In this document: piece by piece, positions 2,192 through 12,913 of the stretch
Layout: each line of letters opens with the position of its first letter
Numbering within the stretch: position 1 is the first letter of the stretch
Assembly: GCA_910579285.1 (NCBI GenBank)
Contig: CAJTTT010000003.1
Coordinates: 21,475 to 45,474, forward strand
From: an uncultured Lachnospiraceae bacterium
Lineage (GTDB): Bacteria; Bacillota; Clostridia; Lachnospirales; Lachnospiraceae
Reading direction: 5' to 3'
DNA length: 24,000 nt
The notes under the pieces: model-generated
Databases searched by the model: none
Seen by the model: the letters and a program-made list of their open reading frames with translations, nothing else
What the model was told of the DNA's origin: nothing
Position numbers and translations under genes: made by a program

Positions 2192-2770
2192 ATGGACGAG
2201 ACAAGCCGGAAGATTATTGATGCGACGATGTCCTTGGTTCGCGACAAAGGCTATGTTGCAACGACGACAAAGGATATCGCACGTTTGGCGGAGGTGAATG
2301 AGTGCACGCTGTTCCGCAAGTTTGAGAATAAGAAGGATATCGTTATGGATGGACTGGCACAGGAAAAATGGCGTGCCAATGTGAATGCGGCGGTCTTTCA
2401 GCATTTGAAGTGGGAGCTGCAGCCGGATCTGGAACTGTTTATGAACGCCTATATGGAGAGAATCACACTCGATTTTGTAAATCTGTCCATCGGCCTGCGG
2501 GCGCCCCAGCTCTATGCCGATACAACTCCCATGATTATGAAGGTTCCCCAGACATTTCTGGAGGCTTTGACAGACTATCTGAAAAAGATGGCGGAGCTTG
2601 GTAAAATCGCGGAAACAGATTTTGCAAGTATGGTTATGACCATATTTTCTTCCACTTTTGGCTATACTTTTTTAAAAGCATCCTTCGGGCAGGCGCTTTC
2701 CAAGGTGGAGCAGGAAACATTTATCAGAAACAGTGTGGAACTGTTTGTGGAGGGAATTGCGAAGGGGTAA
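2192..2770 (+). CDS. TetR/AcrR-family transcriptional regulator
   Basis: N-terminal HTH IIDATMSLVRDKGYVATTTKDIARLAEVNECTLFRKFENKKDIV is a typical TetR_N domain. I prefer ATG 2192 (MDETSRK...), preceded by GGGAGAG, over the track start at 2132. Confidence 0.88.
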   Translation: MDETSRKIIDATMSLVRDKGYVATTTKDIARLAEVNECTLFRKFENKKDIVMDGLAQEKWRANVNAAVFQHLKWELQPDLELFMNAYMERITLDFVNLSIGLRAPQLYADTTPMIMKVPQTFLEALTDYLKKMAELGKIAETDFASMVMTIFSSTFGYTFLKASFGQALSKVEQETFIRNSVELFVEGIAKG

Positions 2771-2803
2771 ATCAAGATAAGAGAATGCGAAGTATTCTCT
2801 GAG

Positions 2804-2831
2804 CCGCCGCGGCCGGGCGGCGGTATTTTTT
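2804..2831 (+). terminator. Rho-independent terminator after the TetR gene
   Basis: CCGCCGC (2804-2810) pairs with GCGGCGG (2817-2823) across a 6-nt loop. TATTTTTT follows (2824-2831). Confidence 0.75.
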
Positions 2832-3078
2832 AAAGCTTATGCAAGTAAGCACTTGTGTGGATGGCATAAATAGGATATTCCATATTCTATTAACAGTGAC
2901 TACTCAAAATACCATATTTATGTGTTGTTAATGTGTACTACATGTCGTAAATGTTGCTTTCCACTCAAAGCTAGTAAAATCACCACGATAAAAGACTTTA
3001 ATAAAAAGGCGACTCAGTAAATTAAATAGTATTGGAATGTTTAAGGATTTATACATCCTTTACCAATGCGTTAGAGTT

Positions 3079-3094
3079 TGAAAAAATGTAATTT
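3079..3094 (+). repeat. Left copy of a 16-bp imperfect direct repeat (TGAAAAAATGTAATTT)
   Basis: Matches 12010-12025 (TGAAGAAATGTAATTT) at 15 of 16 positions, including an exact 11-mer AAATGTAATTT. Confidence 0.5.
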
Positions 3095-3097
3095 ATA

Positions 3098-3126
3098 TAT
3101 ACAATTCTCAGTGCTTATGGTATGAT
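3098..3126 (+). promoter_or_regulatory. Candidate extended -10 promoter of the island operon
   Basis: TATACA (3098-3103), a 17-bp spacer with TG at 3118-3119, then TATGAT (3121-3126), i.e. TGgTATGAT. It lies about 40 nt upstream of the first island gene. AT-rich context makes this weak evidence. Confidence 0.35.
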
Positions 3127-3164
3127 TATAGTAATGTAGATTGTTTCATAAGAGGTGATTTATT

Positions 3165-3443
3165 ATGACGATGGACTTATTTTTGAATGATTATTATAAA
3201 CTGCTAAAGCTGTTGTATAACAATCAGACAATCGTACTTGATAAAAAAGTTGTTCCTTTGACGCAGATGGAGATATGCGCTGTTCTTAATATGTCAAAGG
3301 TAAAGGTCAATACAATTTTTGTTGAACTTCAAAAGGAAAATCTGCTTATTCAGGAAACAAGGGGAAAGTACAGTCTAACGGACAAGGCAGAAACTATAAT
3401 TGAAGGTATAGGTAAAATAGAGAACAAATTAACGGGGGTTTAG
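3165..3443 (+). CDS. Small winged-helix DNA-binding protein (92 aa), putative regulator of the R-M operon
   Basis: RBS AGAGGTGA lies 7 nt upstream. The segment LTQMEICAVLNMSKVKVNTIFVELQKENLLIQETRGKYSLTD has the helix-turn-helix-wing pattern of MarR/Crp-C-terminal-type wHTH domains. The stop is 3 nt before the hsdR ATG. Confidence 0.7.
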   Translation: MTMDLFLNDYYKLLKLLYNNQTIVLDKKVVPLTQMEICAVLNMSKVKVNTIFVELQKENLLIQETRGKYSLTDKAETIIEGIGKIENKLTGV

Positions 3444-3446
3444 AGT

Positions 3447-6400
3447 ATGGCATTTAATGAAAACAGCAGGGTAAAGATTCCCGGATTGCTTCATTTCCTT
3501 AGAATTGGATACATATATCAAAGTAAAAGAAATATGGACATTAGGTCACACAATAATATTTTTGCGGATGTGTTTAAGCAGTCAATCAGAAATATCAATG
3601 GAAAAAATTATTCAGATGAATGTTTAGAAGAAGCGATTAAAGAAATAGAAATTACTACGGAAAATAGAAAAGATAAAGGTCAGGCATTTTATGACAGGAT
3701 GAAAACATATAGCGATATGATGTTAGTTGACTTTGAGAAACCATTGAGGAATGATTTCCGTGTTGTGTCGGAATTGACTTTCAAAGGTGAAAGAAATGTG
3801 AAATTTCGCCCTGACATTACCATACTTGTAAATGGAATACCGTTAGGATTTGTTGAGGTGAAAAAACCCAATAATGTGAATGGCATACAAGCAGAGTTTG
3901 AAAGAATGAAAAAGGAGAGACTCTGCAAGGATGAACTTGTGCCTTTTTTCAATCAGTTTCAAGTTTTGGGATTTACGAATAATCAAAATTATGATGATGA
4001 AGCCAGAATGAAGAAACAAGGCAGTTATTATTCTACTCCCAATGGTACTTCGGTAGCGTATAACCATTTTAGAGAAGAGCAGGAGATTGCTGTAAGTGAA
4101 TTTATTTCAGATGAAGATATAGATACTGTGCTGTCCGACAATAATATGATGTCGATAAAAAATGACGCAGAGTTTAAGCAAAACATGAAAACAGATACTT
4201 TTGCCAATAGATTTATTACGTCTGTATTTTCACCAGAAAGGCTTATTTTTTTCATCAGATATGGGATTGCATATGTGAACAGTCCAGTTGATGGATTTAA
4301 TAAACATATCATCAGGTATCCACAGTATTTTGCATTGCAGGCATTATTGGCAGATTTAAAGGCGGGCATAAAAAGAGGGGTTCTTTGGCATACACAAGGC
4401 TCTGGAAAAACAGCTTTTTCATATTTCGCAACAAATGTATTGAGGGACTATTATCAGACAAAGAAGATTATCACAAAATTCTATTTTGTGGTAGACAGAC
4501 TTGACCTTTTACGACAGGCAAAAATGGAATTTGAAGCCAGAGGCATGACTATAGCGCAGATAGAAAGTAAGGCAGATTTTATTACCAATATACAATCTCC
4601 TGTAGTTATGGATGGCTCAAGCCAGCGGGGTACATATAAAGAAACAATGAATGTTGTAAATATTCAGAAGTTTTCAGATGAATCAACAGTTGTTCCTGAT
4701 GCCGACACAGTTATTCAAAGAATTTACTTTCTTGATGAAGTACATAGGGGATATAAGGAGAAAGGTACTTTTCTGGGAAATCTGTTAGGAGCAGATCCTA
4801 ATGGTATTTTCATCGGCTTAACAGGAACGCCGATTATTGATGATAAGCCAGATGAAAATGGAAGAAAACGCATAAAGAAAAAATTTAAAACAACAGATTT
4901 GTTTTGTAAGTACATACATAAATACTACTATGATAAGAGCATTAAGGATGGATATACCCTGAAAATCAAAAAAGAAAATATTGATACAAAATTTAGGACA
5001 GACTTACGAGCCATGCTGAATATTAAAGATGATGAATCTATATCTGTTGAGCAGTGGAAAGCAGCGACAAGGACACCAGAATATGTAGATCAGTTGTGCC
5101 AATATATAGTAAATGATTTTTCGATTTTTGAAGATACATACCATGATGATTCTATGGGATTTATGGTTGTTTCTACATCAACGAAACAGGCAAAAGAAAT
5201 ACAGAAATGGTTTGAAAATAATTCTGATATTCCGACTGCATTAGTTCTTTGTAATGAAGATGATAATAAAAGCAAACAAGAGTATTTCAGAGGAAAAAGA
5301 GATAATGCGACTGGTGAAACCATCATCAAATACAAAGGTGTGGTTGTATATGATATGCTTTTAACAGGATTTGATGCGCCGAGATTAAAAAGACTTTATT
5401 TGCTTAGGACTGTAAAAGAGCATAATCTATTACAAACACTTGCTAGAGTGAACAGACCATATAAAACCATGAATTATGGGTATGTTGTTGATTTTGTTGA
5501 CATTACAGAAGAATATGAGGAAACAAACAGAAGATATCTTGAAGAATTGCGTGCTGATTTAGCGGATGAAGATGGAAATTCTAATACAGAAGATATTTTT
5601 GTAGATGTTGATGCTGCAAAGAAAGGAATTGCCCATTTAGAGAATACGCTGTTTGCCTATATGGGAAATATAGAAAATAATTTAGAATCATTCAGAATGC
5701 AGATTGAACCATTGGGTGAAAAGACGGTGAGAGCCATTCATGCAGCTCTGGTTGAATATAGGGAGTGCTACAACGAATTAAAAATGTCACATGAGGATGT
5801 AAGCAATATCCCTATTGACAGGCTGGATATGGCACGCCATGAAGCAGCACACAGAATTGATATTCTTGTGGCTGAACGTTTACTGGAAAGCGATGATCCA
5901 GAGAGCGAATCAATAGATTTTACAGATTTAATTGTGGAATTTTTGAAGAGTGGGGAAATTGATTTAGACTTTACTTCTGAAGATGATTTGCTGGACATTA
6001 TAGGGAAATTTAATAATGCAAAGTCCTCAAATACTGATAAGAAAGACCCTTTGTTCCAGGATATTTATAATCGTTACAAGCAAGCTATCAAGGACTTTAA
6101 ATGTGACGTGGCAACAACAGTGAAAATTAAAGAGTTTAAGGATTCCATAAATTCGTTGACTAAAGAAATGCAAAATCTTAATGAGAATAATAATAGCTTA
6201 ACAAACAGATACCAGGGCAGTGAAGAATACATGCGGATTCATAAACGCATTGTTGAAAATTATTCAGAGAATCTGAATGATGTTGCGACTTATAAAGTTA
6301 TGGTTGATATAATTGCTGCGATTGATGATTTGTTAGGACATATGGCAAATCCGTCCCAAAATGTTGTTAAAAGAGATTTATGTAGGCCTGTTAGAGATTC

Positions 6401-6488
6401 TTTGAAAAAACAAGGGTTTACAGATGTGTCAAAGCGACAGGTAGAAAACATTATTTACATTTTTATAGATGATAAATTTACCGACTAA
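3447..6488 (+). CDS. hsdR: Type I restriction enzyme, R (restriction/translocase) subunit
   Basis: 1013 aa. The N-terminal PD-(D/E)xK nuclease motif is RPDITILVNGIPLGFVEVKKP. SF2 helicase motifs are present: HTQGSGKT (Walker A), LDEVHR (motif II) and GLTGTP (motif III). A long helical C-terminus follows, and hsdM and hsdS lie directly downstream. Confidence 0.95.
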   Translation: MAFNENSRVKIPGLLHFLRIGYIYQSKRNMDIRSHNNIFADVFKQSIRNINGKNYSDECLEEAIKEIEITTENRKDKGQAFYDRMKTYSDMMLVDFEKPLRNDFRVVSELTFKGERNVKFRPDITILVNGIPLGFVEVKKPNNVNGIQAEFERMKKERLCKDELVPFFNQFQVLGFTNNQNYDDEARMKKQGSYYSTPNGTSVAYNHFREEQEIAVSEFISDEDIDTVLSDNNMMSIKNDAEFKQNMKTDTFANRFITSVFSPERLIFFIRYGIAYVNSPVDGFNKHIIRYPQYFALQALLADLKAGIKRGVLWHTQGSGKTAFSYFATNVLRDYYQTKKIITKFYFVVDRLDLLRQAKMEFEARGMTIAQIESKADFITNIQSPVVMDGSSQRGTYKETMNVVNIQKFSDESTVVPDADTVIQRIYFLDEVHRGYKEKGTFLGNLLGADPNGIFIGLTGTPIIDDKPDENGRKRIKKKFKTTDLFCKYIHKYYYDKSIKDGYTLKIKKENIDTKFRTDLRAMLNIKDDESISVEQWKAATRTPEYVDQLCQYIVNDFSIFEDTYHDDSMGFMVVSTSTKQAKEIQKWFENNSDIPTALVLCNEDDNKSKQEYFRGKRDNATGETIIKYKGVVVYDMLLTGFDAPRLKRLYLLRTVKEHNLLQTLARVNRPYKTMNYGYVVDFVDITEEYEETNRRYLEELRADLADEDGNSNTEDIFVDVDAAKKGIAHLENTLFAYMGNIENNLESFRMQIEPLGEKTVRAIHAALVEYRECYNELKMSHEDVSNIPIDRLDMARHEAAHRIDILVAERLLESDDPESESIDFTDLIVEFLKSGEIDLDFTSEDDLLDIIGKFNNAKSSNTDKKDPLFQDIYNRYKQAIKDFKCDVATTVKIKEFKDSINSLTKEMQNLNENNNSLTNRYQGSEEYMRIHKRIVENYSENLNDVATYKVMVDIIAAIDDLLGHMANPSQNVVKRDLCRPVRDSLKKQGFTDVSKRQVENIIYIFIDDKFTD

Positions 6489-6501
6489 AGTGGAGGATAT
6501 C

Positions 6502-8094
6502 ATGGGATACGAGGAATACCTGAATAGTATTAAGAAGATGATTGACGATTTAAAAGCAATGACTGCTGATTTAGGACTTGCTAATACTGGCGATGAGTAT
6601 AAAGTCATTTCAGAGCTTTTTACATACAAATTCTTAAATGACAAATTGTTATATTCTTATGAGAATAGAGATGATAAATCAGAGAGTTTTGATGAATATA
6701 TTGATTTTGCCGATTCACAGATTGCAAGTATTGAGGAACAGTATTTGTTAAATAACCTTTTTCAGCGAAGCAACGAAAAAGATTTTCATAAAACATTTGA
6801 TAAAGCTATGATTGCTGTTAGTGATAGAAACCAAGATGTATATTCTATTGAAACAAGTACAGGGTCAAAGAAGCCTTTATTTGAACCATTAAGTGCATAT
6901 TTGCGTGACCCAGACAAGGAGAATGAACTTGCTAAACGTGCAATAAATATTCTGTGCAAGTATAACTTTGGAGATATTTATAATAAGGGATGGGATTATT
7001 TTTCATCTGTGTTTGAGTATTTGATTAAGGATTTTAATAAAGATTCTGGAAAATATGCGGAATATTATACTCCTGCATCGGCAGGAGCAATTATGGCAGA
7101 TATTCTTTATAATGATACGCCAGTTGACAATGTCACTCTTTACGACCCCGCTGCAGGTTCTGGAACGTTACTTTTATCTATGGCGGATAAAATTGGGACA
7201 AGGAATTGTACTCTTTATAGTCAAGACAGAGCGCAGAAGTCGACACAATTTTTGCGTGTCAATCTGATTCTGAATAATTTGGCACATTCCCTTGAAAATG
7301 TTGTAGAGGGAAATACGATGATAGCACCTGCTCATTTAAAGGGAGATAAAATACAACAGTTTGATTTTATCGTTTCCAATCCACCATTTAATGTAGATTT
7401 TTCGGCAGATGTTGAAACAATGAAAGTTGATAAATACGGAAGATTTTTTGCAGGCATACCTAATATCCCGCCGAAGGACAAGTCTGATATGGCAATTTAT
7501 TTGTGCTTTTTGCAGCATATACTATCATCTTTAAATGACAAGGGTAAAGCGGCGGTTGTTGTTCCTGCTGGTTTTTTGACAGTAAGCAGACGTACTTCTA
7601 AAATTGCATATATGATAAGAGAAAAAATAACAGATAAAAACTGGCTAAGGGGTGTCATTTCAATGCCAAGTAATATCTTTGCCACTACAGGAACCAATGT
7701 ATCTATTTTGTTTATTGATAAGACACGAACAAAAGAAGATAAAGATGTTATTCTGATTGACGCATCTAAGCTAGGAGATAAAGTTAAATTAGATGATGGG
7801 CAAAGGACAATTTTATCATCGGATGATGAAAAATATATTATAGATGTTTTTAAGAAAAAGAAAAAGATTGATAATTTTTCCGTTGTTGTATCAAACGAAA
7901 GAATCAAACAGCGGAAATATTCATACAGTGCAGGGCATTATTTTGACCTAAAAGTTGAATTTGAAGAAATTTCAGATGAAGAATTTTCAGAAAAAATTTC
8001 CACATACTCTACAAATTTAGATAATTACTTTGCCATAGGAAATAAACTTGAAAAAGAAATCAAACAATGGATTGAGGTATTCAAACATGAGTAA
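6502..8094 (+). CDS. hsdM: Type I restriction-modification system, M subunit (N6-adenine DNA methyltransferase)
   Basis: AdoMet motif I is DPAAGSGTLL and catalytic motif IV is SNPPFN. YYTPAS lies upstream of motif I. I prefer ATG 6502, with GGAGG 7 nt upstream, over the track start 6469, which overlaps hsdR. Confidence 0.95.
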   Translation: MGYEEYLNSIKKMIDDLKAMTADLGLANTGDEYKVISELFTYKFLNDKLLYSYENRDDKSESFDEYIDFADSQIASIEEQYLLNNLFQRSNEKDFHKTFDKAMIAVSDRNQDVYSIETSTGSKKPLFEPLSAYLRDPDKENELAKRAINILCKYNFGDIYNKGWDYFSSVFEYLIKDFNKDSGKYAEYYTPASAGAIMADILYNDTPVDNVTLYDPAAGSGTLLLSMADKIGTRNCTLYSQDRAQKSTQFLRVNLILNNLAHSLENVVEGNTMIAPAHLKGDKIQQFDFIVSNPPFNVDFSADVETMKVDKYGRFFAGIPNIPPKDKSDMAIYLCFLQHILSSLNDKGKAAVVVPAGFLTVSRRTSKIAYMIREKITDKNWLRGVISMPSNIFATTGTNVSILFIDKTRTKEDKDVILIDASKLGDKVKLDDGQRTILSSDDEKYIIDVFKKKKKIDNFSVVVSNERIKQRKYSYSAGHYFDLKVEFEEISDEEFSEKISTYSTNLDNYFAIGNKLEKEIKQWIEVFKHE

Positions 8095-9367
8095 CATTGT
8101 AAGATTAAAGGACTTATGTATAGGGCATGGAGAATATGGAATTGCTGCCGCAGGTGAACCATACAGTGAAGATAAGTATAGATATTTAAGAATAACAGAT
8201 ATTTCAGACTATGGAGAATTACTTGATTCGGAGAAAAAATCTATATCATGTGATGGATGTGAAAACTATTTTTTGGAAGAAAATGATATTGTATTTGCAC
8301 GAACAGGAAATTCAACTGGCAGGGCTTTCCTTTATGAATCAAGATATGGGAGGTTAGTATATGCAGGATTCCTTATTAAATTCCATTTAGATGATAAAAA
8401 AGTGAATCCCAAATATGTAAAGTATTATACTATATCAGATATTTATAAAAAGTGGATTACTTATAATCCAGACGGAAGTACAAGAGGGAATATGAACGCT
8501 GATGATTTGGCGGAAATACCTGTTATATTGCCGCCCAGGGAGTTTCAAGATAAAATCGTTGGTTTATTAGAACCTATATTTTTGAAAGTTGAGAACAATA
8601 ATAAGACGATTGAGGAATTGGAGAGATTTGCTAATACTATCTTTCAATATTGGTTCCTTCAATATAATTTTCCAGATGATGATGGAAAACCTTATCAATC
8701 GTCTGGTGGGGAAATGGTGTGGAATAAGAAACTTAATAGAAAAATCCCTGTGGGATGGAAAGTCAAAGAATTAAAAGAGTTTTTTACATCAGGGCGAGGT
8801 GTATCATATACTTCTGCTGAAATTGATAATGGTGGAGTTCCAATGATAAATCTGGCGTCATTTAGTCCTGATGGAAGTTATAAAGTTGATGGGCTGAAAA
8901 CATATTCTGGAAATTATACAGTAGATAAGATGCTAAAACCTTATGATTTGATTATGTGTAATACTCAGCAAACTGCTATTGACTATGAAAAGGATATTAT
9001 CGGCAAGACGCTTTTAGTTCCTGATATTTTCGAGGGTGATATTATATCTTCTCATCATGTTACAACATTAAAGGTAAAAAATCAGAATATGAAATTTTGG
9101 CTAAACAGGCTTTTTAATACACATTTCTTTCACGAATATGCAGCGCATAATACAAATGGAACAAATATATTAGGGCTTATTTTTGATGGGATAGAATTAT
9201 GTGTGATGGATATTCCAGATGAGCGTGTATTAAAGTCATTCGCAGATTTTTCTTTAGCAATAGAAAGAGAAAAAAGCAAAATTTTTCTTGAAAATAAGGA
9301 ACTTACATCAATGAGAGATTTTTATTTACCGTTGTTGATTAGCGAGCAATTACAATGTAAACAGTAA
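8087..9367 (+). CDS. hsdS: Type I restriction-modification system, S (specificity) subunit
   Basis: Two variable target-recognition regions are separated by a conserved helical spacer (ILPPREFQDKIVGLLEPIFLKVENNNKTIEELERFANTIF). The protein ends in a second helical conserved region (IPDERVLKSFADFSLAIEREKSKIFLENKEL). ATG 8087 overlaps the hsdM stop as ATGAGTAA, and GAGG lies 9 nt upstream. Confidence 0.9.
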   Translation: MSNIVRLKDLCIGHGEYGIAAAGEPYSEDKYRYLRITDISDYGELLDSEKKSISCDGCENYFLEENDIVFARTGNSTGRAFLYESRYGRLVYAGFLIKFHLDDKKVNPKYVKYYTISDIYKKWITYNPDGSTRGNMNADDLAEIPVILPPREFQDKIVGLLEPIFLKVENNNKTIEELERFANTIFQYWFLQYNFPDDDGKPYQSSGGEMVWNKKLNRKIPVGWKVKELKEFFTSGRGVSYTSAEIDNGGVPMINLASFSPDGSYKVDGLKTYSGNYTVDKMLKPYDLIMCNTQQTAIDYEKDIIGKTLLVPDIFEGDIISSHHVTTLKVKNQNMKFWLNRLFNTHFFHEYAAHNTNGTNILGLIFDGIELCVMDIPDERVLKSFADFSLAIEREKSKIFLENKELTSMRDFYLPLLISEQLQCKQ

Positions 9368-9404
9368 TTTTTTGTATGATGTTTATTGAGTGAGGATTAA
9401 TCAA

Positions 9405-9950
9405 ATGTTGGAAGTATTTTTAAAGGTGATGGACAAAATACATATTAAAGAAATAGCCTTTTCTGTATTAGTTGTCTGCGGAATTATTTTGTTTGTCCCA
9501 GATACTTTTATGGAGACATTAGGGTTATTCTTGTGGCGGGATAAATATAGAAGCTTGGTGGGACTGATATTTTTATTCTGTTTAACATGTTGCATAGTAT
9601 GGCTTTTCATTTATTTGAAAAGAGAAATAAGCCACGGGAACTTGCGGTTAAGGAGAGTAACAAGGAAATATTTAAAGAGTCTTATATCGACAGAGGAGAA
9701 AAATTTTTTGATTGAAAATTATTATGACCCTACAATGAAAGAGTTTTCTAATATGGCGAGAGTTGATTTAACTAGCGGAAATGTTGTTTCATTATCAGTA
9801 GCACATATAATTTATACGGGTAACAGAATGGGTCATGGACCTACTAATTGGTCATATAATTTACAACCTAGTGTTAGGATGTATCTTAATAAAGCTGTTC
9901 GCAAAAAGAAAATTGTTGTAGACAAAGATGGATATACATGGAATTTATGA
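9405..9950 (+). CDS. Two-TM membrane protein, possibly superinfection-exclusion SieB-like (function unverified)
   Basis: Starts 37 nt after hsdS on the same strand, with AGGA about 8 nt upstream of ATG 9405. Two hydrophobic helices (IAFSVLVVCGIILFV and SLVGLIFLFCLTCCIVWLFIYL) precede a basic stretch and a soluble tail of about 110 aa. The resemblance to the SieB family layout comes from memory, not from a search. Confidence 0.65.
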   Translation: MLEVFLKVMDKIHIKEIAFSVLVVCGIILFVPDTFMETLGLFLWRDKYRSLVGLIFLFCLTCCIVWLFIYLKREISHGNLRLRRVTRKYLKSLISTEEKNFLIENYYDPTMKEFSNMARVDLTSGNVVSLSVAHIIYTGNRMGHGPTNWSYNLQPSVRMYLNKAVRKKKIVVDKDGYTWNL

Positions 9951-10227
9951 TTATAAGGCTTGTTTAAAATAGAAACAAATACAAAACACCTGTAACGACA
10001 GAAGTGGTTAAAATTAATAAAAGACTTTTCATATACAATTTCCTCAAAATTGTTTTAACGGGGCAAAAAAAAGAAGATTCTGAAAAGAAAATCCAGAAGC
10101 AGGTAGCGAAGTACGAAAGAGATTTAAGGTACGGCGGAATTGATTGTAATGGAAATTTTACGCGTCTACATAATAGAAATGAAATATATTACTAACGATA
10201 TCTGCTTTTTAACAATTTACAGAAATA

Positions 10228-10785
10228 ATGGAGGATATTATTTTGGAACCAGCAGAAGCATGGAATGTAATCATTTTATTGGTACAGGCAGCAATACTTA
10301 TATGGCAAGTAATTTTAAGTAAGCAAATTCATAAGCAAACGATATCAAAAGAAAAAGGCTATTTTATTATTGATAGGACAAATGCTATCGTGCCAGAAGA
10401 AAATAGAAACGATGTTGCTGGAATATTTAATCTGAAAAGTAAAAATGGAATTAGGTTTTATGTGTCAGGAAATGCCGATGTTATTGTTTGTGATTCAGGG
10501 TATTCAATAAATGGCATTGTCCGTAAAAATTATGCAACACCAAGTGATGCCTATTTTACATTAGATGATAGATTCAATAAGTTCATTATTGAAATAGAAA
10601 TTTCTGATAATGAGGAAAAGCAAAAACAGCTTGATTTTGAATTTGTTTTTAAACTTAAAAATGCCATTGGATATAAATATGCGGAGAAAATAGATGTAAC
10701 ATTTGAGAAAATGGAAGGCGGCGCTTCTATATGGGGAATTAGGAAATACAATACAATGTTTTTAAAATGGAATCAGGTAAAATAA
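10228..10785 (+). CDS. Single-pass membrane-anchored protein of unknown function (185 aa)
   Basis: The ORF has island-like composition. An N-terminal hydrophobic helix AWNVIILLVQAAILIWQVIL is followed by a soluble region that looks beta-rich. An alternative start is TTG 10243, with GGAGG 8 nt upstream. I recognise no family. Confidence 0.6.
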   Translation: MEDIILEPAEAWNVIILLVQAAILIWQVILSKQIHKQTISKEKGYFIIDRTNAIVPEENRNDVAGIFNLKSKNGIRFYVSGNADVIVCDSGYSINGIVRKNYATPSDAYFTLDDRFNKFIIEIEISDNEEKQKQLDFEFVFKLKNAIGYKYAEKIDVTFEKMEGGASIWGIRKYNTMFLKWNQVK

Positions 10786-10803
10786 AATGAAAGCAGAAAG
10801 ACA

Positions 10804-10905
10804 ATGGGTAAATTAGATGTTATTGAAATGCACAGGAATTGTTTAGATTTTCTTTTAAAATGGCAGTTAGAACATGAAGATTTTTACTTTGTGCCTAGAA
10901 AATAA
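10804..10905 (+). other. Out-of-frame 33-codon segment that reads as the N-terminus of the downstream nuclease-like gene
   Basis: ATG 10804 gives MGKLDVIEMHRNCLDFLLKWQLEHEDFYFVPRK, then TAA at 10903. The downstream ORF's frame is open back to 10899 (KINNNGRRDKG-MYFRG...). A -1 shift in AGAAAATAA joins the two into one continuous plausible sequence. Confidence 0.45.
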
Positions 10906-10931
10906 ATAACAACGGCAGGCGTGATAAAGGC

Positions 10932-11768
10932 ATGTACTTTCGTGGTAATGATGATTATATTGTGATTTCATTCTGGAATAAAACAGATGTAGTTGACAAG
11001 ATTTATCTGATTAATTGGGATTGCAATACATCAGGAGAAGTATCTATTACCCTGTCTTGTCGGAATGACCCCAAGAAGTTGCCTTATATTCTTGCGATTA
11101 AAGATATGATAGAGGACACGGGCAAGAAGTTTGAGCAATTTTCGCCAAATAAAAATAAATGGAAATGGTATTATCCTGCGGATATGACTTACATAGAAAC
11201 TCTGGAGGATTTTATTACGCATGAGAAACCTATGATTGATAAGTACCTGCTTGAACACCCTGAAAGCGACATACCTTTAGCAGACACGGAGATTGATGAT
11301 AAGTATGTAAAAACAATTTCTGGGTATTATGACCATGTTACAGATATTTTAATACAGAAGAAAGCAGGGAATGTGGAAGCAGTCAAGTCTGAATATATAA
11401 TGACGCTGAAGCATAACAACCTTTCAAATGAGATGGTGAAGTATTTGAAATGTAAAGGCTATACTGATGTTGTTACAGATAAGGACTTTGTTGATATTCA
11501 GGCTGTAGACCCACAGGGTAATAAGATATATTTTGAATTGAAAACAGCGGACACTGTAAAACTGGCTATAAGGCAGGCATTGGGGCAGCTTTTGGAATAC
11601 AATCATTACCCAAACAAAAATAATGCCGACAAACTTATAATTGTGACAGCATTGGAAATTACTCAACAGGATATGCAATATCTGATAGGGATGCGGAGCA
11701 GATATAATATTCCAGTATATTACCAACAATTTGATATGGATAAAAAATTATTGTCAAAAGAGTATTAA
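10932..11768 (+). CDS. PD-(D/E)xK-like nuclease-fold protein with an uncharacterised N-terminal domain; probably frameshifted (full unit 10804-11768)
   Basis: The C-terminal 110 aa show the restriction-endonuclease-like pattern: a helix with Glu (LSNEMVKYL), VDIQAV (Asp), IYFELKT (E-x-K) and AIRQALGQLLEY. There is no convincing RBS before ATG 10932, consistent with an upstream continuation. Confidence 0.65.
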   Translation: MYFRGNDDYIVISFWNKTDVVDKIYLINWDCNTSGEVSITLSCRNDPKKLPYILAIKDMIEDTGKKFEQFSPNKNKWKWYYPADMTYIETLEDFITHEKPMIDKYLLEHPESDIPLADTEIDDKYVKTISGYYDHVTDILIQKKAGNVEAVKSEYIMTLKHNNLSNEMVKYLKCKGYTDVVTDKDFVDIQAVDPQGNKIYFELKTADTVKLAIRQALGQLLEYNHYPNKNNADKLIIVTALEITQQDMQYLIGMRSRYNIPVYYQQFDMDKKLLSKEY

Positions 11769-11791
11769 AGAGAATGTTCATATTAAAAGAA

Positions 11792-11800
11792 TGTTATAAT
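11792..11800 (+). promoter_or_regulatory. Candidate extended -10 element (TGtTATAAT) upstream of the small Asn/Gln-rich ORF
   Basis: TG at 11792-11793 and TATAAT at 11795-11800, 44 nt upstream of ATG 11844. A direct repeat AGAATGTT occurs at 11771-11778 and 11789-11796. I see no good -35. Confidence 0.4.
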
Positions 11801-11843
11801 GAAGACGCTACAAAAATATAGGTCAGGGAAGGAGGATTCAGAT

Positions 11844-12008
11844 ATGAGCAAATGTTCTGGTAATACACACAGCCAGTCACAGATGAACTATCATGCGAAT
11901 CAAGGCAATCCAAACAACAGGGCGCATGTGGTTAGTGCTAATAATCGTTCAAATCAATGCAACCCCAATAATAGCGCTTACCATTCCAGCCGTAGCGGCG
12001 GAAAGTAA
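11844..12008 (+). CDS. Small Asn/Gln/Ser-rich protein (54 aa) with a tandem NQxNPNN motif
   Basis: A strong RBS (AAGGAGGA) lies about 8 nt upstream of ATG 11844. The peptide MSKCSGNTHSQSQMNYHANQGNPNNRAHVVSANNRSNQCNPNNSAYHSSRSGGK contains two copies of N-Q-x-N-P-N-N. It has no hydrophobic core. Confidence 0.5.
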   Translation: MSKCSGNTHSQSQMNYHANQGNPNNRAHVVSANNRSNQCNPNNSAYHSSRSGGK

Positions 12009-12278
12009 ATGAAGAAATGTAATTTCCCGACAGAGAGGTGTCCCGCTTACATCACGGATTTCATCAGTCTGGCAGTGTGCTATGGGGCGAAGGGAATCCG
12101 TGTGACAAAAGAGGAAGAAAGCGCGGCCGCCCTGGAGACGGCGAGACATACGGATAAAGTGCCTACCATCATTGAGTTTATCATAGAACAGGAGGCAGAT
12201 GTATGGCCGATTATCCCGTCGGGCAGGGGGCTGGAGGAGATGCTTGCAGCGGAGGAGATATGCCGCCTAAAGAATTAG
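12009..12278 (+). pseudogene. Orphan C-terminal fragment of an acetolactate-synthase-type (ThDP-dependent, large subunit) gene
   Basis: YITDFISLAVCYGAKGIRVTKEEESAAALETARHTDKVPTIIEFIIEQEADVWPIIPSGRGLEEML matches the conserved C-terminal end of AHAS large subunits (PDFVKLAEAYGAKG..RV ... P.LIE..ID.EENV.PM.P.G). About 470 N-terminal residues are missing. The ATG at 12009 lies inside island-derived sequence. Confidence 0.65.
12010..12025 (+). repeat. Right copy of the 16-bp imperfect direct repeat (TGAAGAAATGTAATTT)
   Basis: 15/16 identity to 3079-3094. It ends exactly where the sequence turns G+C-rich (CCCGACAGAGAGG from 12026). Confidence 0.5.
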
Positions 12279-12283
12279 GAGGA

Positions 12284-12305
12284 GCGGCCCAAACACAGAG
12301 GCCGC
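12284..12305. terminator. GC-rich hairpin between convergent genes (possible terminator)
   Basis: GCGGCC (12284-12289) pairs with GGCCGC (12300-12305) across a 10-nt loop. U-tracts are poor on both strands. Confidence 0.35.
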
Positions 12306-12328
12306 ATGCCCATCCTGAACTCCATCCG

Positions 12329-12913
12329 TTAACGGATCCGGCCGTTTTTGGCTTTGCATATGAGCTGTGTCATGGTGCCCATAGGGCAGTACACGCACCA
12401 GGAGCGGGGCTTGCATAAAATCATGGTGAAAAGCCCCAGTACGGTGGAGGTGAGCATTACGCTGTAGAAGCCGAATGCAAACTGTGCGATGCCATCGGAA
12501 AACAGGGTGCCGTGGTATGCCCAATGCCACGGAAGCTTGAATGTCCAAAGCAGCGTTACCACAGTGCCAAGATCTCTGGCTCCGGCAAAAACCAGCCAGG
12601 TGTTCCACAGCATAAGGAAAAACATGGTGAAGAAAAAGAGTAAAAATCCGTATCGGAAATAGCTGGATTTCATCCATTTTGGGATATCCTTTTTCCGAGA
12701 CAGTCCGAGGCGGCCGCCGAGCAGGGCAAATAACTGCCCTCTGCCGCAATATTTGTTACAGTAAGCTTTATTGCCTTTTATAATCGCTATCAGAAGCGGT
12801 ATAAAGAAGCAGAGCAGGCCAAGCCAAGCAAAGAGGATGTTGAAAAAGCCCAGGATCAGATAGGTAAGCGAGACAATCCAGAGATAATCATACCATTTTT
12901 TCTTTTTTTTCAT
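12329..12913 (-). CDS. Integral-membrane 4Fe-4S-binding protein (Fer4_5-like)
   Basis: True start is ATG at 12913 (MKKKKKWYDY...), with GGAGGTGG upstream. It has multiple TM helices plus Cys motifs YCNKYCGRGQ and SWCVYCPMGT, typical of membrane Fe-S proteins of this family. The ATGA overlap with the upstream ferredoxin stop suggests translational coupling. Confidence 0.8.
   Translation of the reverse strand: MKKKKKWYDYLWIVSLTYLILGFFNILFAWLGLLCFFIPLLIAIIKGNKAYCNKYCGRGQLFALLGGRLGLSRKKDIPKWMKSSYFRYGFLLFFFTMFFLMLWNTWLVFAGARDLGTVVTLLWTFKLPWHWAYHGTLFSDGIAQFAFGFYSVMLTSTVLGLFTMILCKPRSWCVYCPMGTMTQLICKAKNGRIR

Follow-up and report, generated by a model that had tools for sequence, protein, structure and literature searches.

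A probable mosaic of accessory genes, including two candidate anti-phage factors, behind a Type I restriction-modification operon in a Lachnospiraceae genome

The window analyzed here is a stretch of 24,000 nt from contig CAJTTT010000003.1 (GCA_910579285.1; 21,475 to 45,474 of the forward strand), and coordinates below are window positions unless a locus is named. Base composition reveals an island with a G+C content of 0.30 to 0.38 over 3000–12000, compared with 0.42 to 0.55 in the flanks, and an abrupt increase at 12001. The plus strand of the island carries a winged-helix regulator (3165–3443; Pfam HTH_Crp_2, E-value 1.4e-5, 25.4 bits, slightly below the cut-off of 27) and a Type I restriction-modification (R-M) operon comprising hsdR (3447–6488; PADLOC REase_I, 7e-37), hsdM (6469–8094; MTase_I, 8e-188), and hsdS (8048–9367; Specificity_I, 4.5e-58). 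The same regulator (phmmer, 1.3e-43) stands at the head of other cargo in loci L019 to L022. The right boundary is formed by what is left of the 3′ end of a thiamine-pyrophosphate enzyme gene on the plus strand (12009–12278), where G+C rises to 0.53; the remnant matches Pfam TPP_enzyme_C (4.4e-5) and covers only the last 42 positions of that profile. The stretch from 9405 to 12008, referred to here as the tail, holds genes 1 to 4. The ORF list of the window places the tail ORFs on a single strand at the coordinates given in a first-pass annotation of this DNA, and the reading of the setting as part of a low-G+C, horizontally acquired, defence-type island is supported. That annotation had also reported no terminator between hsdS and gene 1, and indeed the plus strand from 9200 to 12330 showed no terminator-like site, so the tail may be transcribed by read-through from the hsd operon. 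All of the tail genes could then lie on one transcript, although such read-through would be co-transcription and not a single mechanism.

Gene 1 (9405–9950, plus strand, in an ORF opening at 9390 or 9405) starts 37 nt after hsdS and encodes a 181-aa protein of the SieB family (superinfection exclusion or abortive infection type). It matches Pfam PF14163 with an E-value of 4.3e-15 and 56 bits, above the gathering threshold of 26, and residues 26–169 align to positions 4–146 of the 147-position profile. The earlier view that the tail genes could be placed in no characterized system is thus wrong for gene 1; it stands in part for gene 3, whose N-terminal domain is shared with the Septu PtuA1 model (see below). 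Hydropathy, the only basis used, gives two N-terminal hydrophobic segments (residues 11–42 and 47–75), in agreement with the two transmembrane segments annotated previously, and these are followed by a basic C-terminal part (pI 9.5). SieB proteins are small inner-membrane proteins with hydrophobic N-terminal segments and a soluble C-terminal part. Gene 1 resembles SieB of P22- and lambda-type prophages in its near full-length match to the model, its small size, its hydrophobic N-terminal segments, and its position among other anti-phage genes. It differs in its setting, a Clostridia-type genome where it follows a Type I R-M operon on the chromosome instead of lying in a prophage immunity region, and a tblastn search of GenBank phages gave no match at an E-value of 0.01 or better. 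In P22, SieB halts a superinfecting phage midway through its lytic growth cycle (PMC10883804). By family membership and analogy with the P22 protein, the gene 1 product would shut down macromolecular synthesis as a superinfecting phage develops.

The interval between genes 1 and 2 (9951–10227) had been treated as empty, but it contains a conserved small ORF on the plus strand (10004–10195; phrog_37778, E-value 1.3e-5), the start codon of which is uncertain in the window. Its conserved core of ~46 aa includes ...KYERDLxxGGIDCNGNFTRLHxRNEIY, and the region has no Rfam match. The ORF is kept upstream of gene 2 in L019 to L022.

Gene 2 (10228–10785, plus strand) encodes a 185-aa protein in which a single N-terminal membrane anchor precedes a β-sandwich domain; its family is unnamed. 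The single transmembrane segment originally proposed corresponds to the one hydrophobic segment detected by hydropathy (residues 8–34), and the AF2 model (pLDDT 91.5) has a helix at residues 8–41 followed by β-strands. Basic residues follow the membrane segment which, by the positive-inside rule, suggests that the β-sandwich domain is cytoplasmic. No match was found in Pfam, PADLOC, or NCBIfam, those in PHROGs were at chance level (E-values of about 0.05–0.2), and comparison of the model with the PDB and BFVD returned no significant structural match. An exhaustive search identified 75 representative clusters in the family, members of which trail R-M operons at three independent sites: the window, L162, and L154. 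In L162, hsdM-hsdS is followed by 10 nt containing GGAGG and then the gene 2 relative; in L154, a Dam-like methylase gene is followed by an EcoRV-like endonuclease gene and, 55 nt after the latter, by the relative. Both relatives are on the same strand as the R-M genes and have their own ribosome-binding sites. A comparable layout is provided by prrC, an abortive-infection gene inside the prr Type Ic locus, and the positions of SieB and of the L162 relative, 37 and 10 nt after hsdS respectively, recall such a second line behind R-M. The likeness is one of gene layout, as opposed to physical coupling to the R-M enzyme, and neither sequence nor fold showed any resemblance to PrrC or RloC. Our best guess, held with low confidence, is that gene 2 might encode a second-line exclusion or abortive-infection factor.

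Gene 3 (10804–11768, plus strand), the most interesting gene of the tail, is a pseudogene in the window strain. Its two parts (10804–10905 and, in another frame, 10932–11768) derive from a two-domain protein of 321 aa. The frameshift had been noticed previously and was located here to the A-run at 10899–10902, where the window has four adenines and intact alleles have five; among 14 other contigs of the lineage, four share the window's version and ten have the fifth adenine. Repair with a fifth adenine yields a 321-aa protein, and this is the commonest length in the family (most members have 313–325 aa). Because the 1-bp deletion costs the protein both the invariant motif FYFVPRK and helix 1, gene 3 is, as judged from its sequence, very likely inactive in this strain.

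The repaired protein has an N-terminal domain at residues ~4–164 and a C-terminal domain at ~185–321, and the earlier description of a PD-(D/E)xK-type C terminus behind an unusual N-terminal domain proved accurate for both. By motif and fold, the C-terminal domain is a member of the PD-(D/E)xK nuclease superfamily. Residues H204, D231, E245, K247, Q262, and E265 are invariant in 58 family sequences down to 39% identity, and the catalytic motif, D231 (VDI) and E245-L-K247 (FELKT), maps to strands 230–235 and 241–246 of an AF2 model (pLDDT 90) with a restriction-endonuclease-like α/β fold. The top Foldseek matches in the PDB were XisH (the best), NucS/EndoMS, EcoO109I, SfsA, YaeQ, and the Can2/Card1 nuclease domains, with probabilities up to 1.0 and E-values of only 2e-3 to 0.1. 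Assignment to the Type II endonuclease TdeIII (PF09520/RE_TdeIII) was rejected, with scores of 20.2–20.6 bits falling below the Pfam cut-off of 27.2. The N-terminal domain matched positions 2–158 of the 584-position PADLOC model PDLC00287 (Septu PtuA1) with an E-value of 5.4e-15. This model recognized all 58 family members tested (best 4.1e-25), and further N-domain matches were obtained for L054 (7e-34) and L049 (3e-27). Residues 1–200 had no match in Pfam at E-values up to 10, and a profile search of PDB sequences for a reader domain produced chance-level matches only. PADLOC contains no full-length model for gene 3 or gene 2.

The relationship to Septu is partial. Homology extends over the ~160 aa of the N-terminal domain, and in gene 3, as in Septu (PtuA ATPase plus PtuB HNH nuclease), this domain is coupled to nuclease activity. 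Gene 3 differs in having no ATPase domain (the PDLC00287 match ends at position 158), and no Walker A motif (G-x4-GK[ST]) was seen on reading its N-terminal half. It also has no conserved HNH partner (PtuB) beside it in 20 genomes, with one HNH match among 109 neighbors; the nuclease is instead fused in cis and has a PD-(D/E)xK fold, not an HNH fold. Gene 3 was not classified as a member of Septu, since it has the PtuA1 N-domain and lacks both the ATPase domain and an adjacent PtuB. Another comparison for gated nucleases of defence islands is Mrr and the Escherichia coli immigration-control region, hsdRMS-mrr-mcrBC. Like Type IV enzymes such as Mrr, gene 3 has a sensor-like N-terminal domain followed by a C-terminal PD-(D/E)xK nuclease and no conserved cognate methyltransferase nearby (any single model matches at most 2 of the 109 neighbors). 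As in the immigration-control region, it is found beside Type I R-M genes in the window and in Anaerocolumna, and distant relatives occur near hsdM. Unlike Type IV enzymes, its N-terminal domain matches no Pfam modified-base reader (SRA, EVE/PUA-like, YTH, or Mrr_N). Gene 3 may therefore be pictured, by analogy, as a stand-alone sensor-plus-nuclease in which the PtuA1-like domain would sense or bind a trigger and the PD-(D/E)xK domain would cleave nucleic acid. Because it travels without a cognate methyltransferase, such a nuclease would have to be gated, as are Type IV restriction enzymes and abortive-infection nucleases.

The gene 3 family comprises >140 homologous clusters in Clostridia, and 42 genome loci were surveyed, 20 of them with full-length genes in different species. 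The neighborhoods are variable and include a prophage end. In Anaerocolumna, a Type I R-M locus and AbiH precede gene 3, with a gap of 11 nt after AbiH, and the neighbors in Sporotomaculum include an HsdR_N fragment, HNH_2, Mrr_N, and Mrr_cat; Avs2, mREase_IV, PbeA, pAgo, RT-Toprim, and a NERD/UvrD helicase were found elsewhere. Relatives that consist of the C-terminal domain only reside in cassette arrays of Vibrio, where TIR, AbiH, and GIY-YIG genes are their neighbors, and also near hsdM in L058 and L064, with overlapping ORFs in the latter.

Gene 4 (11844–12008, plus strand, in an ORF opening at 11799 or 11844) encodes a basic peptide of 54 aa from a family of 43 clusters. The peptide contains 22% Asn, 18.5% Ser, and 7% Gln, with two NQxNPNN repeats, consistent with its annotation as Asn/Gln-rich, and the promoter element attributed to it, the extended −10 sequence TGtTATAAT, is present at 11792–11800. 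A ribosome-binding site (AGGAGG, 11830–11835) precedes the ATG at 11844 by 8 nt, and the 54-aa form is supported by the homologues, which begin with MSK or MAK. Residues Q20, P23, N24, N25, N34, N37, Q38, N40, P41, and N42 are invariant. Family members were located on IMG/VR viral contigs (66 loci) and at the edges of integrase-bearing elements. Gene 4 may thus be seen as a small basic peptide associated with phages or mobile elements that sits at the island edge and would have no functional relation to the other tail genes.

The first-pass annotation proposed that genes 1 to 4 form one novel four-gene module, with the caveat that they might equally be independent single-gene modules. It is the caveat that agrees with the comparative data; the proposal itself is contradicted by the absence of a shared gene order, by separate distributions, and by independent decay. 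Co-occurrence and order, as expected of one system, are not kept across unrelated genomes, and family searches gave each tail gene a distribution of its own. Among the 20 species genomes with full-length gene 3, gene 2 adjoins it in one. The gene 4 family is found beside gene 3 in none of the 20, its occurrence there being confined to the island's own lineage, and a relative of the window SieB is likewise found in none, in a search with a single SieB sequence as query that distant relatives could escape. Clustering of the neighbors in these genomes identified no family common to the gene 3 loci. Decay is equally uncoordinated. In the window, genes 1 and 2 are intact and gene 3 is frameshifted; in L019 to L022 the N terminus of gene 2 is destroyed (in L020 by stop codons within the membrane segment) and gene 3 is intact; and in a sister haplotype, ~99.8% identical to the window where compared, three adenines in place of four at 9715–9718 cause a frameshift in SieB. 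Natural haplotypes thus have one of the two genes broken, SieB or gene 3, a reciprocal pattern that could reflect a cost of keeping both. The cargo is also reshuffled: in L020, a wHTH gene and a gene for a 272-aa protein come before the small ORF, a degraded gene 2, and gene 3, whereas in L152 SieB follows a gene whose 280-aa product is 60% identical to that 272-aa protein. Collectively, these results indicate that the tail is probably a mosaic of independently acquired and independently decaying accessory genes, placed 3′ of a Type I R-M operon.

Within such a mosaic, context and domain homology make genes 2 and 3 candidates for defence roles. That their families are genuine new single-gene anti-phage factors is a tentative proposal, to which we give somewhat less than even weight. 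A joint role is unlikely. Here, genes 2 and 3 would constitute a two-gene system of this sub-lineage, in which a membrane-anchored sensor or partner serves a cytoplasmic nuclease effector and the two travel together as a cassette with the small-ORF repeat at its borders. The genes are separated by 18 nt in the window and are adjacent in three backgrounds: after R-M and SieB (window), after the wHTH and 272-aa protein genes (L019 to L022), and in L030, a different species-level MAG. This spacing and adjacency make a local functional pairing possible. In L020, a second copy of the small ORF lies downstream of gene 3 (direct repeats at 1633–1779 and 3391–3536 of that locus), and in L030 degenerate copies occur on either side of the pair; in these relatives the repeat marks the edges of the gene 2–gene 3 cassette. 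Opposing this reading, 19 of the 20 species genomes with full-length gene 3 have no gene 2, and close relatives of gene 3 (80–91% identity; L029, L031 to L034, L036, and L047) are among the loci without it. Conversely, at least five contexts, both behind R-M operons and elsewhere, have a gene 2 relative and no gene 3, and each gene is found intact next to a broken partner, gene 3 in L020 and gene 2 in the window.

It is quite improbable that the tail is unrelated to defence and represents decaying mobile-element cargo, with gene 3 possibly a recombination- or excision-type PD-(D/E)xK protein (XisH- or resolvase-like), gene 2 possibly an unrelated membrane or surface protein, and gene 4 a phage peptide. 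XisH, an element-excision factor, is the best PDB match of gene 3 among fold matches that are all weak; pseudogenization is frequent at the locus; many neighbors of gene 3 are housekeeping genes, such as those for SmpB, LepA, DegV, and ETF; and neither the ORF list nor a profile search of the window proteins revealed a recombinase in the island. Such cargo fits poorly, however, with a gene 1 score above the SieB cut-off, a gene 3 N-terminal domain in common with the Septu ATPase model, the recurrence of R-M, AbiH, Mrr, Avs2, and similar genes beside gene 3, and the location of gene 2 behind three independent R-M operons. Also counted against it is an IMG/VR viral contig in which gene 3 lies upstream of two adjoining ORFs with, in our reading, serine-recombinase-like N-termini. 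A single new multi-gene defence system made up of the four or five tail genes, with or without the Type I R-M operon, is highly improbable: the genes share one strand with short gaps and no terminator detected from hsdS to 12330, and several metagenome contigs of the lineage repeat the arrangement, but those contigs are one locus at 99.8% identity and so do not count as independent evidence, there is no synteny outside the lineage, each family is distributed separately, and there are natural haplotypes in which one or the other of SieB and gene 3 is broken.

As read from sequence and predicted structure, the tail is then an ordinary defence-island mosaic with two decent new single-gene candidates, genes 2 and 3. 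If the proposal for gene 3 is true, it would represent a new architecture, in which a Septu PtuA1 sensor domain is fused directly to a PD-(D/E)xK nuclease to give a self-contained, ATPase-free "mini-Septu" or a Type IV-like restriction enzyme. Were the family active, the PtuA1 N-domain would be a portable sensing module, able to act through an ATPase and its HNH partner in one case and through a cis-fused PD-(D/E)xK nuclease in the other, and would offer a handle on the trigger of Septu-type systems. Gene 2, if the same holds for it, would be a membrane-tethered β-sandwich back-up found specifically behind R-M operons, and its activity would point to a membrane-based back-up layer that moves with these operons in gut Clostridia, of which, to our knowledge, few defence genes have been tested. 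More generally, where several uncharacterized ORFs follow an R-M operon, the default reading would be a mosaic of single-gene cargo rather than one system.

An ORF check confirmed the observation made in the first-pass annotation, and all four open reading frames (ORFs) of the tail were present where it had placed them: gene 1 (9405-9950), gene 2 (10228-10785), gene 3 (10804-11768), and gene 4 (11844-12008). The island genes lie on the + strand throughout and comprise a small winged-helix regulator (3165-3443), the Type I R-M genes hsdR (3447-6488), hsdM (6469-8094), and hsdS (8048-9367), and the tail. G+C content in the window is 0.30-0.38 over 3000-12000 and is back up to 0.53 from 12001. 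Many metagenome contigs carry the same locus, as does the metagenome-assembled genome (MAG) GCA_951801875.1 (contig CATOOQ010000004.1). No terminator-like site was found on the + strand from hsdS to 12330, so read-through from the hsd operon into the tail would be possible. A promoter scan returned fewer sites than in shuffled sequence and was therefore uninformative on operon structure. An Rfam scan of 2700-12500 found no RNA families.

Gene 1 had been described as one of four genes that could not be placed in any characterized system. That description does not hold for this protein, which matched Pfam PF14163 (SieB) at 56 bits against a cut-off of 26 (E 4.3e-15), with an alignment covering profile positions 4-146 of 147. 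Hydropathy analysis identified two hydrophobic segments, both N-terminal. Together, the profile match and the two segments identify gene 1 as a new member of the known SieB family, a characterized kind of phage-exclusion protein. A PADLOC scan of gene 1 gave no matching model, and tblastn against GenBank phages gave no match.

In the window, gene 3 is broken and is a pseudogene. The frameshift site reads AGAAAAT, with four adenines (A4) at 10899-10902, and the frameshift eliminates helix 1 and the invariant FYFVPRK motif. Ten contigs of the window lineage carry an A5 allele (AGAAAAAT) that encodes an uninterrupted 321-aa product; the five of these aligned in full share ~99.8% identity with the window. 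The A4 frameshift was also seen in four other assemblies and is therefore a real allele. Programmed frameshifting was ruled out because the intact allele has simply one A more in a short A4/A5 run and because intact homologues are read in one frame throughout.

SieB is itself frameshifted in a sister haplotype, which has A3 rather than A4 at 9715-9718. Haplotype A (the window and contigs L001, L002, L023, and L025) has an intact SieB and a frameshifted gene 3; haplotype B (L003-L005, L007, and L024) has a frameshifted SieB and an intact gene 3. Apart from these reciprocal single-A indels the two haplotypes are 99.8% identical. A further contig, L010, combines the SieB frameshift with the A5 allele but ends within gene 3. 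Among the window-species contigs compared, none had both genes intact. The reciprocity could reflect a cost of having both genes, or it may be coincidence, since the contigs effectively represent two lineages. In L003-L007, what had looked like a distinct 71-aa gene ahead of gene 2 was rejected as such, because it is the C-terminal half of the frameshifted SieB.

The repaired gene 3 protein matched 142 clusters at E ≤0.001, most of them 313-325 aa in length. None of these clusters contained a Pfam domain, and the few that are named (Lachnospiraceae, Mobilitalea, Anaerocolumna, and Sporotomaculum) are all "hypothetical". In the C-terminal half, D231, E245-x-K247, H204, Q262, and E265 are invariant in 58 sequences, down to 39% identity. 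The best fold matches of the AlphaFold model (pLDDT 90) were PD-(D/E)xK nucleases, namely XisH, NucS/EndoMS, EcoO109I, SfsA, YaeQ, and the Can2 nuclease domain, and these matches were weak (E 2e-3 to 0.1). Taken with the invariant D231 and E245-x-K247, they support the PD-(D/E)xK-type C-terminus that had been proposed for this protein. Weak fold-search matches to type III secretion chaperones and a match to a cystatin-scaffold Affimer (E 0.003) were judged uninformative. PDB sequence searches with the gene 3 profile and with two longer relatives (L054 and L058) returned nothing significant.

In the N-terminal half, residues 4-164 align to positions 2-158 of the 584 in PADLOC model PDLC00287 ("PtuA1|PtuA", the Septu ATPase) with E 5.4e-15, and the N-terminus of this model was matched by 58 of 58 gene 3 family members (best 4e-25). 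Compared with Septu PtuA, gene 3 has the PtuA1-type N-domain but not the ATPase part, and no Walker A motif was seen in its N-terminal half by inspection. In a distant Omnitrophota relative (L054, 9995-11539), the N-domain is followed by a middle domain (ICWNxxGWxxPSGxKGKS...EEWLF) and a gene 3-type nuclease. Two likewise distant Bacteroidota relatives (L058, 8741-10369; L064, 8762-10372) carry the same type of middle domain and nuclease behind another N-terminus; both are near hsdM, which the ORF in L064 overlaps. Neither Pfam nor PADLOC matched this middle domain. In L049, the gene 3 N-domain occurs on a 272-aa stop-to-stop ORF that has a different N-terminal extension and ends soon after the domain. 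The two domains of gene 3 recombine independently, and the gene belongs to an unnamed, sizeable two-domain family in which a PtuA1-type N-domain is fused to a predicted PD-(D/E)xK nuclease.

A genome scan with gene 3 gave 42 loci, 20 of them full-length and each of these in a different species. When five genes on either side of gene 3 were compared by all-against-all clustering, no neighbour family was common to more than three loci. Gene 2 was next to gene 3 in one of the 20 genomes (L030, a MAG of a different species), the gene 4 family in none, and this SieB, sought with a single sequence, also in none. The counts for genes 2 and 4 do not support the proposal that genes 1-4 form a single novel defence module. 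The surroundings of gene 3 vary, with defence genes at several loci. Among 109 neighbours from the 20 genomes, strong matches included Avs2, a NERD/UvrD-type helicase, mREase_IV, PbeA, pAgo, RT-Toprim, Vsr, and AbiH; housekeeping genes such as SmpB, LepA, DegV, and ETF were present too. The order in Anaerocolumna sp. MB42-C2 (L011) is hsdM-hsdS-hsdR, a YgjP-like gene, three unannotated ORFs, AbiH, and, after 11 nt, gene 3, with resolvases and a HEPN protein close by. The Sporotomaculum copy is surrounded by an HsdR_N fragment, DUF6602, HNH_2, Mrr_N, Mrr_cat, and transposases. Relatives with the C-domain only occur in Vibrio plasmid cassette arrays beside TIR, AbiH, GIY-YIG, and HEPN-associated genes; on a Vibrio tubiashii plasmid (L080) such a relative is followed by AbiH. 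AbiH-family genes and gene 3 relatives are thus direct neighbours in two unrelated organisms (L011, 8829-10963; L080, 6716-8370). An IMG/VR viral contig carries a 57%-identical gene 3 homologue upstream of two ORFs with serine-recombinase-like N-termini; ORFs further upstream look like tail and lysis genes, these neighbours having no family-scan annotation. Gene 3 had no tblastn match in GenBank phages.

An orphan Type II endonuclease was ruled out as the identity of gene 3, which scored under the family cut-off of Pfam RE_TdeIII and has no conserved methylase nearby. We read gene 3 instead as a candidate stand-alone, horizontally mobile nuclease of the defence-island type. Since no methyltransferase is conserved with it, its nuclease activity would have to be gated, either by a Type IV-like specificity or by trigger-dependent (abortive-infection) activation through the N-domain.

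A word-indexed search with gene 2 found only 12 close clusters; an exhaustive HMMER search gave 75 representative clusters, which are ~165-185 aa long and align end to end. The AlphaFold model (pLDDT 91.5) consists of a long helix at residues 8-41, hydrophobic over 8-34, followed by an all-beta domain. Foldseek searches of PDB and BFVD returned generic beta-sandwich matches only (best E 0.038 and 3.9e-3, respectively), none of them significant. A Pfam scan of 49 family members gave single chance-level matches and no family; scans of genes 2 and 4 against Pfam, PADLOC, PHROGs, and NCBIfam gave nothing useful, and a search of viral contigs with gene 2 alone found nothing. The family occupies R-M tails in three of five independent contexts, five being few. 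In P0180 (37% identity to the window protein) it completes an hsdM-hsdS-gene 2 operon, 10 nt past hsdS with GGAGG in the spacer; in P0176 (42%) it follows a Dam-like methylase and an EcoRV-like endonuclease gene after 55 nt; and in the window it stands behind hsdS, SieB, and a small ORF. The remaining two copies are without gene 3: P0128 (76%) shares its element with a large serine recombinase, GmrSD_N, and SSB and is followed by a CAP-domain gene, and P0179 (44%) is behind an acyltransferase-3 gene and a 139-aa ORF. Our guess is that gene 2 encodes a membrane-tethered exclusion or abortive-infection accessory.

The small ORF in front of gene 2 (10004-10195) encodes 63 aa from a GTG start and matched phrog_37778 at E 1.3e-5. 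Its last 40 residues (C-terminal) are conserved in L019-L022, relatives with other cargo; its upstream part shows no in-frame conservation, and the TTG start of L020 is missing from the window. In L020, a ~150-nt direct repeat containing the small ORF lies on both sides of gene 2-gene 3 (1633-1779 and 3391-3536). Degenerate copies also lie on either side of this pair in L030 (353-430 and 2077-2220), one of them with an in-frame stop. The repeat had no match in Rfam and so is not a known RNA element. The small ORF may be a small leader gene that is copied along with each cassette, or it may mark a cassette border. The longest homopolymer noticed in the tail, A8 at 10064-10071 (GGGGCAAAAAAAAGAAG), lies in this region; in the sister haplotype its second A is a G.

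The order in L019-L022 is a winged-helix homologue, a 33-aa ORF, a 272-aa membrane protein, a small ORF, gene 2, and gene 3; the N-terminus of gene 2 is wrecked by stop codons and gene 3 is intact. The winged-helix gene of the window, whose stop is 3 nt upstream of hsdR, is a close homologue (phmmer E 1.3e-43) of the gene that heads this different cargo, which suggests a portable regulator heading a cargo-swapping island. In another locus, L152, a 280-aa protein 60% identical to the 272-aa protein precedes a SieB that shares 75% identity and carries an in-frame interruption. The genes further upstream include an ORF with an NPPY motif, which we read as methylase-like, a 1132-aa protein, and two ORFs that look like a nucleotidyltransferase/HEPN pair. 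The unannotated 272-280-aa protein (L020, 769-1587; L152, 6111-6950) has a hydrophobic stretch near its C-terminus and adjoins the gene 2-gene 3 cassette in L020 and the SieB homologue in L152; it is one more of the parts that these islands shuffle. Its L020 copy had no PADLOC match and has no Pfam match on record.

Gene 4 can be read as a 69-aa or a 54-aa form. The ATG of the longer form falls inside the -10 element; the shorter has AGGAGG 8 nt upstream, and homologues start with MSK or MAK. On these grounds the 54-aa form is taken as the real one. The peptide is basic (pI 10.1) and Asn- and Ser-rich, with two invariant NQxNPNN repeats. Its family comprises 43 clusters and was found at 66 loci on IMG/VR viral contigs (L085-L150), frequently on contigs of 30-70 kb. 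No PHROG model matched gene 4, and tblastn against GenBank phages gave no match, although the low-complexity filter may hide this protein. Some members are the last gene of integrase-bearing elements beside rplL, and others belong to elements that also encode a phage-lysozyme-domain protein, TnpB, and a DNA methylase. Gene 4 was never found beside gene 3 outside the window lineage. In our view it is cargo of a mobile element, sitting at the edge of the island. At this right edge, 1 base past the gene 4 stop codon, starts an acetolactate-synthase-like ORF of 89 aa (12009-12278). It is what remains of the 3' end of a thiamine-pyrophosphate enzyme gene, which the island appears to have either replaced or cut short. 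A 16-nt direct repeat (15/16 identical) lies near the left end of the island at 3079-3094 (TGAAAAAATGTAATTT) and exactly at its right end at 12010-12025 (TGAAGAAATGTAATTT); it may mean nothing, since AT-rich DNA should, on a rough estimate, contain several such pairs by chance alone.

The fallback offered in the first-pass annotation, independent single-gene modules, fits the data, which show a mosaic with no shared neighbour family, separate contexts, and independent decay. For the unnamed gene 2 and gene 3 families there is reasonable contextual evidence for a role in defence; for gene 3 this is joined by domain-level evidence, in that a PtuA1-type N-domain is fused to a predicted PD-(D/E)xK nuclease. 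The tail therefore offers two leads, the architecture of gene 3 and the recurrent placement of gene 2 relatives at the end of R-M operons, and the latter is the most interesting new lead, albeit from five contexts.
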